DNA of 64,000 nt from Escherichia coli (lineage in GTDB: Bacteria > Pseudomonadota > Gammaproteobacteria > Enterobacterales > Enterobacteriaceae). Position numbers: made by a program. Positions 12,001 to 15,000 of the stretch are shown here, piece after piece (the stretch's first letter is position 1; each line of letters starts with the position of its first letter). The stretch is taken from the NCBI RefSeq assembly GCF_003991155.1, contig NZ_CP031293.1; one strand, 5' to 3'.

Positions 12001-15000
12001 GCAAGCCGTGAAATCAGCGAAGCGCTGAAAGCGAAAGGCATTGATATGCTGGATGCTCCGGTGAGCGGCGGTGAACCGAAAGCTATCGACGGTACGCTGT
12101 CAGTGATGGTGGGCGGCGACAAGGCCATTTTCGACAAATACTATGATTTGATGAAAGCAATGGCGGGTTCCGTGGTGCATACCGGGGAAATTGGTGCAGG
12201 TAACGTTACCAAACTGGCGAATCAGGTCATTGTGGCGCTGAATATTGCCGCGATGTCAGAAGCGTTAACGCTGGCAACCAAAGCGGGCGTTAACCCGGAT
12301 TTGGTGTATCAGGCAATTCGCGGTGGACTGGCGGGCAGTACCGTGCTGGATGCCAAAGCGCCGATGGTGATGGACCGCAACTTCAAGCCGGGCTTCCGTA
12401 TTGATCTGCATATTAAGGATCTGGCAAATGCGCTGGATACTTCCCACGGCGTCGGCGCGCAACTGCCGCTCACAGCTGCGGTTATGGAGATGATGCAGGC
12501 ACTGCGAGCAGATGGTTTAGGAACGGCAGATCATAGCGCCCTGGCGTGCTACTACGAAAAACTGGCGAAAGTCGAAGTTACTCGTTAATGACGTCGTGCC
12601 CGGATGGCGTATTGCAATCCGGGCCTGGAATCCAGGCCGAATAAGAGAAACGCCCTCCGGCGTCATGTGGTAACAGGCATAGGTATGAAAATCGTAATCG
12701 CCCCAGACTCTTATAAAGAAAGTTTATCTGCCAGCGAGGTTGCGCAGGCGATAGAAAAAGGATTTCGGGAAATTTTTCCTGATGCACAGTACGTTTCTGT
12801 TCCTGTTGCCGACGGTGGCGAAGGAACGGTGGAAGCGATGATTGCAGCCACCCAGGGTTCCGAACGTCACGCCTGGGTTACAGGGCCGCTGGGCGAGAAG
12901 GTGAATGCCAGTTGGGGGATCTCCGGCGATGGCAAAACCGCGTTTATTGAAATGGCGGCGGCCAGTGGGCTGGAGCTGGTACCTGCGGAAAAACGTGATC
13001 CACTCGTGACCACTTCACGCGGCACAGGCGAGTTAATTCTGCAGGCGCTGGAGAGCGGCGCGACAAACATTATTATCGGCATTGGCGGTAGCGCTACAAA
13101 TGATGGCGGTGCAGGCATGGTACAGGCGCTGGGGGCGAAATTATGCGACGCCAACGGCAATGAAATTGGTTTTGGCGGCGGTAGTCTTAATACTCTGAAT
13201 GATATTGATATTTCCGGCCTCGATCAGCGCTTAAAAGATTGCGTCATTCGCGTCGCTTGTGATGTCACCAATCCGCTGGTGGGCGATAACGGCGCATCGC
13301 GCATCTTTGGCCCACAAAAGGGAGCCAGTGAAGCGATGATTGTTGAGCTGGACAATAACCTCTCTCACTATGCCGATGTCATTAAAAAAGCGCTGCATGT
13401 TGATGTGAAAGATGTCCCCGGCGCAGGAGCTGCGGGTGGTATGGGCGCGGCGCTAATGGCGTTTCTTGGTGCGGAACTGAAAAGTGGTATTGAAATCGTC
13501 ACGACGGCGCTGAATCTGGAGGAACATATTCACGATTGTACGCTGGTGATCACCGGTGAAGGGCGTATTGACAGCCAGAGTATACACGGCAAGGTTCCGA
13601 TTGGCGTCGCAAACGTGGCGAAAAAGTACCATAAACCGGTGATTGGCATTGCGGGTAGCCTGACCAATGATGTTGGCGTTGTACATCAGCATGGCATTGA
13701 TGCGGTCTTCAGCGTATTGACCAGTATTGGTACGTTGGACGAAGCATTCCGCGGGGCTTATGACAATATTTACCGTGCTTCACGTAATATCGCCGCGACA
13801 CTGGCGATTGGAATGCGCAACGCGGGGTGACAAGGGCGCGCAAACCCTCTATACTGCGCGCCGAAGCTGACCAGACAGTCGCCGCTTCGTCGTCGTCCTC
13901 TTCGGGGGAGACGGGCGGAGGGGAGGAAAGTCCGGGCTCCATAGGGCAGGGTGCCAGGTAACGCCTGGGGGGGAAACCCACGACCAGTGCAACAGAGAGC
14001 AAACCGCCGATGGCCCGCGCAAGCGGGATCAGGTAAGGGTGAAAGGGTGCGGTAAGAGCGCACCGCGCGGCTGGTAACAGTCCGTGGCACGGTAAACTCC
14101 ACCCGGAGCAAGGCCAAATAGGGGTTCATAAGGTACGGCCCGTACTGAACCCGGGTAGGCTGCTTGAGCCAGTGAGCGATTGCTGGCCTAGATGAATGAC
14201 TGTCCACGACAGAACCCGGCTTATCGGTCAGTTTCACCTGTTTTACGTAAAAACCCGCTTCGGCGGGTTTTTGCTTTTGGAGCATAGTGTAAGATGAATA
14301 AATATCTACGGTATTAATAATAGACTTTGTAAGAAATTATTAAGTCTATATTGCATTTAAAAGGTCGTAATCATACGTATAGTCCTCTCTGGTAAAATAT
14401 TGCTTCTCTGAGTTATAAGCTTCATATGTGTTATATTTTACGACCTCAAAGCAATTGTCAGGAGAATTTTCGTCTTTCTCTAGTGTATTATCTGAAAGGA
14501 ATTCCTCTGAGCTAGAATCCTCTATGTTTAAATCTGTATTGTAATTAATTTTTGGATCGATAAGATAAGCATTTTCTTTGACGCTTTCATAATCTTTAAT
14601 GATTATATCGATGTAATAATCTATTTTTTCTGATGAGAATCCTTTCATCTCTGGTAATTTAATTCTGTTCAAGTAATTGTTAATTTTCGATGAGCTTTTA
14701 TATATTTCTTTTGTTAATTCATTTTCTAATTGATCTGTTAGAGTTGCTCTTGGTATAGATTCTATAATTGCAAGTCTCATGATTTTTAATTGTTCTTCGG
14801 TAATATCTCCAAGCGCATTTAAACAACTTTCGACAAGCTTAATTTTTTCTTCAGAATACATATCGTTAATGCTTGTTATAACAGGCGTTATTTTTAGTAA
14901 ATAATCCCATGAGATTGTGGCGTTTTGTTTTGAACTAACGAAATTTACCTGAAACATGTTGGCATTAGTAAAATCTGTGTCATCCAATTTAAAAGGATTT

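Follow-up and report, generated by a model that had tools for sequence, protein, structure and literature searches.

The rnpB gene of this Escherichia coli chromosome is very probably an independent gene that is transcribed from its own promoter at the tail of the gar operon, any RNA that reads into it from the genes upstream being a by-product. On this reading rnpB would be expressed strongly and constitutively from a sigma-70 promoter and would simply happen to sit behind garPLRK. The overlap between the garK stop codon and the -35 hexamer of that promoter would then be a consequence of compaction, since an open reading frame that abuts the promoter in the right frame would stop at the TGA within it. 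For E. coli, the gene, its promoter, its terminator and its place behind garK are already textbook and database knowledge; the locus is like rnpB and rnpBp of the K-12 garPLRK-rnpB unit in its hexamers, in the 32-nt distance between garK and rnpB and in its terminator, and differs only in the strain and in the copy number of a 113-bp unit. Our additions are minor and leave this picture unchanged: a stop codon within the -35 hexamer that two unrelated genes share, what appears to be an older pairing of rnpB with rsmI, and a natural experiment in the form of an IS421 insertion.

The window, that is, the whole stretch of DNA analysed here, comprises 64,000 nucleotides of the E. coli chromosome. 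A 3-kb stretch around rnpB is 100% identical to strain PEC403 and was matched in 5425 of 5426 complete E. coli genomes; the genes annotated in it are garK, rnpB, yhaC and yhaB. The protein-coding features upstream of rnpB are the following.

9548..12588, plus strand: garP, garL and garR of the galactarate/glucarate operon (NCBIfam TIGR00893 transporter, NF007849 GarL, NF008592 GarR)
9548..10882, plus strand: garP (NCBIfam equivalog)
12685..13830, plus strand: garK, glycerate 2-kinase, 381 aa (NF007668, 840.7 bits)
13828..13830, plus strand: TGA stop codon of garK, inside the -35 hexamer (from the sequence and the end of the open reading frame)

The garP, garL and garR genes lie directly 5' of garK on the same strand, and garD is divergent. 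NF007668 matches residues 28-408 of the open reading frame 12604..13830 and, because the match begins only at residue 28, the true start of garK should be at about 12685 and not at 12604; a garK of 381 aa is also what RefSeq annotates in K-12. The general glycerate-kinase model, TIGR00045, stops at residue 402, leaving about six of the last garK residues beyond it.

Downstream of garK, the RNA gene and its 3' region were delimited as follows.

13863..14239, plus strand: rnpB, M1 RNA, the catalytic RNA of RNase P, 377 nt (Rfam RF00010)
14240..14279, plus strand: rnpB 3' trailer and intrinsic terminator (direct folding)

The identity of rnpB is secured by a match to RF00010 (RNase P RNA, bacterial class A) that covers the model from 1 to 367 of 367 and scores 318.6 bits against a gathering score of 100 (E = 1.7e-103). 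The RefSeq rnpB feature in K-12 is likewise 377 nt long, and the K-12 gene at the same locus, annotated as RNase P RNA, gives a megablast alignment that is 98.5% identical across rnpB. Catalysis by M1 RNA on pre-tRNA, together with the C5 protein, is established in the literature. When the segment 14225..14290 was folded directly, the terminator hairpin was found at about 14249..14272, with a CCCGC-UUCG-GCGGG core extended by A-U pairs and then UUUUUGCUUUU, which supplies the U-runs; its energy is -25 kcal/mol (z -3.95), and none of 200 shuffled sequences folded equally well.

The promoter that we assign to rnpB, called rnpBp or P-1, lies directly before the mature 5' end and consists of four elements.

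13827..13832, plus strand: -35 hexamer GTGACA (top promoter-scan match)
13833..13849, plus strand: 17-nt spacer (alignment columns 16-32)
13850..13855, plus strand: -10 hexamer TATACT (promoter scan and alignment)
13856..13862, plus strand: GC-rich discriminator GCGCGCC, between the -10 hexamer and +1 at 13863 (from the sequence)

GTGACA and TATACT, 17 nt apart and scoring 10/12, form the best site that a simple sigma-70 scan finds in 9000..15000. Promoter-like sites are no commoner in this region than in shuffled sequence (10 against 8.7), so that the case for rnpBp rests on position and conservation. With regard to position, the mature 5' end of M1 RNA, as given by both Rfam and RefSeq, comes 7 nt past the -10 hexamer, and M1 is therefore most simply read as the primary transcript of rnpBp. 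With regard to conservation, we aligned without gaps the 72 distinct junctions of Enterobacteriaceae type obtained from 120 species-level loci with an rnpB 5' end. TGACA is invariant in all 72 and TATACT nearly so; the discriminator columns 40-45 (CGCGCC) are invariant or nearly so, and the 3' half of the spacer, AAACCCTC (13842..13849), is nearly invariant in Enterobacteriaceae. Variation is found in the 5' part of the spacer, that is, in the nine bases after the -35 hexamer (columns 16-24), and also in the garK codons that precede the hexamer. Within E. coli itself, 5232 of 5425 genomes carry the 111-nt junction at an identity of 99% or more.

GC-rich discriminators have a role in stringent control, and the rnpB promoter possesses the discriminator feature of the stringent (ppGpp-sensitive) promoters of stable RNA genes; in mutational studies from the Lee laboratory, transcription from the rnpB promoter reportedly falls on amino-acid starvation or in response to ppGpp. 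It resembles the promoters of rRNA and tRNA genes in its near-consensus -10 hexamer, its imperfect -35 hexamer and the GC-rich discriminator before +1, but differs from them in having no evident UP element and in tolerating the insertion of an IS element at -37, which is described below.

The junction between garK and rnpB had been described in an initial annotation, much of which stands. That annotation placed the 5' end of M1 RNA (13863) 33 bp after the garK stop codon, and 13863 - 13830 is indeed 33; it had a candidate -35 element overlap the end of garK, and GTGACA at 13827..13832 does contain the TGA at 13828..13830, the hexamer beginning at the third base of the final sense codon, taking in the stop codon entirely and running two bases beyond it; and it called rnpB co-directional with the gar operon, as it is, garPLRK and rnpB all being on the plus strand. 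Because the -35 hexamer contains the stop codon, garK and the promoter adjoin with no intergenic DNA in between. Read-through from garPLRK into rnpB, which was expected from the outset, is likewise what we would predict, given that the 32-nt gap between the genes is without an intrinsic terminator and that a joint unit is already annotated. A strong terminator between the two genes had been named as a finding that would speak against read-through; it was looked for and not found, no intrinsic terminator being detected on the plus strand of the gap by a scan and an inverted-repeat check, and the hairpin that is present there having no U-run. The promoter/terminator scanner failed to detect the genuine rnpB terminator as well; its negative result is therefore weak taken alone, and we relied on direct folding. 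The same 32-nt gap is present in the RefSeq annotation of K-12, and the arrangement of garPLRK and rnpB, co-directional genes with no terminator between them, fits a polycistronic layout. What does not follow is the further claim that processing or termination must separate the two transcripts, since the 5' end of M1 lies 7 nt after a conserved -10 hexamer.

In proposing how the two kinds of transcript coexist, we suppose that transcription from rnpBp would start at the mature 5' G of M1 RNA, at 13863, and would end at the hairpin and T-run some 36 nt past the mature 3' end, after which the trailer would be trimmed. Polymerases arriving from garPLRK would meet no terminator before rnpB, would run through it and would stop at about 14270-14279, yielding long garPLRK-rnpB RNAs that are most likely degraded and not matured, functional M1 being supplied by rnpBp. 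Ko et al. are said to have found in 2008 that RNase E degrades the long rnpB transcripts made from upstream promoters, which are not converted to M1, and that the same enzyme cuts the 36-nt 3' trailer off the primary rnpB transcript. RNase E is cited in the literature as acting in the maturation of M1 RNA. We infer the read-through, the start site and the fate of the long transcripts from the logic of the sequence, from database annotation as quoted in a preprint, and from what Ko 2008 and Motamedi 1984 are reported to have found.

The preprint, a CRISPRi study of MG1655, describes a garPLRK-rnpB unit with rnpBp internal to it and uses the locus as its example of an intra-operonic promoter: guides directed against garK, garR, garL and garP were neutral, while those directed against rnpBp or rnpB reduced fitness. 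The screen was done in LB, a medium in which gar expression is presumably not induced, and it is silent on induced conditions. When PBAD takes the place of the native rnpB promoter, cells become dependent on arabinose. The main text of Conway 2014 makes no mention of rnpB. The locus is thus like those at which an intra-operonic promoter guards an essential gene from polarity, in that the internal promoter frees rnpB from the genes upstream, as the CRISPRi results indicate; it differs from them in that the downstream gene specifies a non-coding RNA that needs an exact 5' end, and for this reason transcripts from upstream cannot simply replace the primary one.

Comparison across species separates the promoter from the gene that happens to end in it. 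In each of the 120 species-level loci we located the nearest long co-directional open reading frame 5' of rnpB, and in 91 of about 116 informative loci this frame stops at a TGA 32-33 nt before +1, inside the -35 hexamer. The upstream genes and their ends are as follows.

garK, in Enterobacteriaceae: ends at the TGA of the -35 hexamer (54 of the 91 loci)
rsmI, 16S rRNA C1402 2'-O-methyltransferase, in Erwiniaceae: ends at the same TGA (37 of the 91 loci)
agaR, in Cedecea and Pluralibacter: stops 43-59 nt before +1
garR, garK having been lost, in Lelliottia and some Enterobacter: stops 59-78 nt before +1
garK with an early end: stops 39-77 nt before +1

The Erwiniaceae gene was identified as rsmI by NF011570 (603.5 bits). 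In the lineages with agaR, garR or an early end of garK the promoter is unchanged, with the exception of two garK loci of Siccibacter type (L023 and L113) in which the -35 hexamer is TTGCAA. That the promoter stays as it is where the upstream stop lies earlier indicates that it is the promoter, and not the stop codon, that is conserved.

A direct search for RsmI homologues returned only Erwiniaceae proteins of more than 90% identity and was useless for deeper synteny. A search of 50% representatives gave RsmI proteins 53-66% identical to that of Pantoea, and the contigs that carry them were scanned with Rfam. In five of six distinct distant contexts rsmI is followed directly by a co-directional rnpB, 22 to 163 nt away, and three of these contexts are ordered lpoA-yraN(-diaA) / rsmI-rnpB-mraZ-rsmH-ftsL. 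In K-12, rsmI is co-directional with rnpB and lies 21.9 kb upstream, the interval being occupied by the yra fimbrial genes, the aga cluster, prlF-yhaV, garD and garPLRK. From these gene orders, rsmI followed by rnpB appears to be the older arrangement, and it is likely that in Enterobacteriaceae the old pair was split by accessory clusters, which left garK at the promoter. The E. coli locus shares with the rsmI-rnpB pair of other Gammaproteobacteria the position of rnpB directly 3' of a co-directional protein gene (at 22-163 nt in those genomes), and with the pair in Erwiniaceae it shares the very TGA within GTGACA, which ends rsmI there and garK here. The locus offers a small and tidy example of an essential promoter that stays put when the gene upstream of it is swapped, that gene being rsmI in one family and garK in the other.

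How both functions can survive such an event is shown by an environmental isolate, E. coli VG48B2, in which IS421 is inserted exactly at the garK-rnpB junction. The 10-bp target duplication is GGTGACAAGG (13826..13835 in the window), which leaves garK with its TGA and rnpB with its -35 hexamer, preceded by only a single native base; the two genes are now 1.3 kb apart, and the duplication has preserved both functions. Annotation of the locus calls for some caution, because any editing, deletion or recoding at the end of garK would also affect the -35 hexamer of an essential gene.

Between the garK stop codon and +1 there is one further feature that bears on the fate of read-through RNA.

13835..13862, plus strand: perfect 8-bp inverted repeat, with arms GGCGCGCA (13835..13842) and TGCGCGCC (13855..13862) (inverted-repeat search)

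In a read-through RNA this repeat is predicted to form a hairpin of about -14 kcal/mol that ends at -1 and in which every pair but one is GC. The hairpin is followed by GAAGCUGACC and not by a U-run, and so is not an intrinsic terminator. Nor do we accept it as a conserved RNA structure, there being no covariation: in the 72-sequence alignment 74.7% of cells pair, and 485 of 500 column shuffles do equally well; the right arm is invariant, and double changes are found in only two cells. One of these is a change from C-G to U-A in E. albertii (GGCGTGCA / TGCACGCC), for which other Escherichia show U·G intermediates. When the 99 distinct leaders from -30 to -1 were folded, the mean z was -0.99, with a quarter of them below -2, and the predicted hairpin ended no more than 3 nt from +1 in 73 of the 99; this mean, together with the pair in E. 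albertii, is too weak to argue for a conserved structure. Enterobacteriaceae and Erwiniaceae do not pair in the same register, and the hairpin is missing from many species. Two alternating GC tracts will, by their nature, pair in several registers. The leader hairpin is unproven, and may simply follow from the GC-richness of the spacer and discriminator. Complementarity between the 5' part of the spacer and the discriminator is commoner than shuffled sequence would give (the mean z of -0.99 again), which a pure by-product view leaves unexplained.

Several alternatives to an independent rnpB with incidental read-through have to be weighed, and the most elaborate of them is unlikely. It holds that the placing of a TGA within the -35 hexamer, handed down from an ancestral rsmI-rnpB pair, arose anew for garK, and that together with the hairpin ending at -1 it decides what becomes of RNA coming from upstream, for instance by tagging that RNA for decay by RNase E or by keeping it from folding into active M1, while induction of gar might occlude rnpBp. 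If true, this would link sugar-acid catabolism to the supply of RNase P.

That the overlap between stop codon and -35 hexamer has itself been selected, for instance because it couples rnpB to the upstream gene or because ribosomes or the hairpin control the fate of read-through, is quite unlikely. The proposal draws on the 91 of about 116 informative loci at which two unrelated genes (garK in 54, rsmI in 37) stop at this TGA, and on the tendency of leader hairpins to end at -1 (73 of 99). However, any open reading frame that enters GTGACA in that frame must stop there, which means that the sharing of the TGA within each family is largely inherited and that the loci represent two events and not 91. 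Moreover, lineages with agaR, garR or a shortened garK as the neighbour keep the promoter unchanged, with the stop codon 39-78 nt distant; in distant Gammaproteobacteria rsmI stops 22-163 nt before rnpB; and an IS insertion that parts the two genes is tolerated.

We regard as very unlikely a second source of M1, in which garPLRK-rnpB RNAs would be cut precisely at -1/+1 and would add functional molecules to those made from rnpBp, so that the supply of RNase P RNA became partly inducible by galactarate. The gap without a terminator and the annotated transcription unit that includes rnpB are consistent with such a route, and a stable hairpin ending exactly at -1 could mark the site of cleavage. 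Against it, the -10 hexamer stands at an ideal distance from the mature 5' end, in a promoter that is invariant across genera, and the hairpin is without covariation; knockdown of the gar genes is neutral, and upstream transcripts were reportedly found by Ko et al. 2008 to be degraded and not matured. There is also no obvious need for a supplement, M1 being already among the five most abundant non-coding RNAs.

Finally, it is highly improbable that gar transcription stops before rnpB and leaves the two units insulated, whether through pausing or termination at the GC hairpin 13835..13862 or through Rho, for although an 8-bp GC hairpin of this stability comes right after the garK stop codon, it gives way to GAAGCUGACC with no U-run, is weak or absent in many species and is followed, just 32 untranslated nt after garK, by a highly structured RNA that leaves little room for Rho to load, and databases list a joint transcription unit.

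A few minor observations concern the neighbourhood of rnpB. An apparent relic of the -35 hexamer after E. coli rsmI (GGGG-TAA-CAG) is explained by orthology of the rsmI 3' end with that of Erwiniaceae and is not evidence of duplication, and a similar candidate after agaR is unconvincing. A 171-codon antisense open reading frame across rnpB is spurious. The 3' unit of rnpB is the 113-bp unit, which is present in one copy in the window as against 3.5 repeats in K-12.

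The gene that precedes rnpB, the gene for M1 RNA, differs among genera, and the comparison turns on four elements of the window, all on the plus strand:

13827..13832, plus strand, -35 hexamer (GTGACA) of the rnpB promoter
13828..13830, plus strand, garK stop codon (TGA)
13850..13855, plus strand, -10 hexamer (TATACT)
13863..14239, plus strand, rnpB, with +1 at 13863

In Pantoea, Erwinia, Tatumella and Mixta (Erwiniaceae loci within L011-L119 of the comparison set), rsmI, which encodes the 16S rRNA C1402 2'-O-methyltransferase, stands upstream of rnpB instead of garK, and its stop codon is the TGA within the GTGACA -35 hexamer (compare 13827..13832 in the window) at 37 of the 39 Erwiniaceae rsmI loci. 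Elsewhere garK has been lost and garR adjoins rnpB (Lelliottia/Enterobacter loci L017, L035, L072 and L105), or agaR lies directly upstream (Cedecea and relatives; L006, L043, L051, L071 and L114); in these natural variants the stop codon of the upstream reading frame precedes +1 by 43-78 nt, with no change in the rnpB promoter. Promoter spacers are ordinarily unconstrained in sequence. The segment AAACCCTC (13842..13849), immediately 5' of the -10 hexamer, shows almost no variation across the Enterobacteriaceae; the sequence at this position differs in the Erwiniaceae.

Adjacency of rsmI and rnpB, in that order, is kept in five of six distant gammaproteobacterial contexts (L123-L132), while in K-12 the two genes are co-directional at a distance of 21.9 kb (L122, rsmI at 9286..10146 and rnpB at 32029), separated by the yra fimbrial, aga, prlF-yhaV, garD and garPLRK clusters. 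Together, these observations suggest that rsmI and rnpB are an old pair, inside which accessory clusters later came to lie.

The junction has also been the target of insertion. In E. coli VG48B2 an IS421 (L133 1158..2500) separates garK from rnpB precisely at their boundary, and the 10 bp of target sequence duplicated there, GGTGACAAGG, correspond to 13826..13835 of the window. The combined garK stop codon and rnpB -35 hexamer are thereby doubled, and both genes are intact despite the insertion.

At the other end of rnpB, a 113-bp unit that starts in the last ~22 nt of the gene and takes in its terminator is repeated 3.5 times in tandem in K-12 (L001 4618..5010, against window 14218..14345). 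The unit occurs only once in the window strain, and consequently rnpB and yhaC are separated by 106 nt rather than the 613 nt of K-12. Of 5425 genomes, approximately 2300 match 80% or more of the window query, and an insertion of ~280-400 bp is present in some of this group.

Three points concern annotation. The garK frame is open for 27 codons (12604..12684) upstream of the start at ~12685 that NCBIfam and RefSeq support, so that a mechanical ORF list overstates the length of the gene. An ATG-initiated frame of 171 codons (13770..14285, minus strand) lies antisense to rnpB along the gene's full length. This frame is almost certainly an artefact of the GC-rich gene for a structured RNA, and one that can mislead gene callers. 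Finally, a match to the Rfam sRNA ES036 (CssrF) at 33005..33045, minus strand, is borderline (38.4 bits, where the gathering score is 37.6) and has three non-canonical pairs at the base of its stem.
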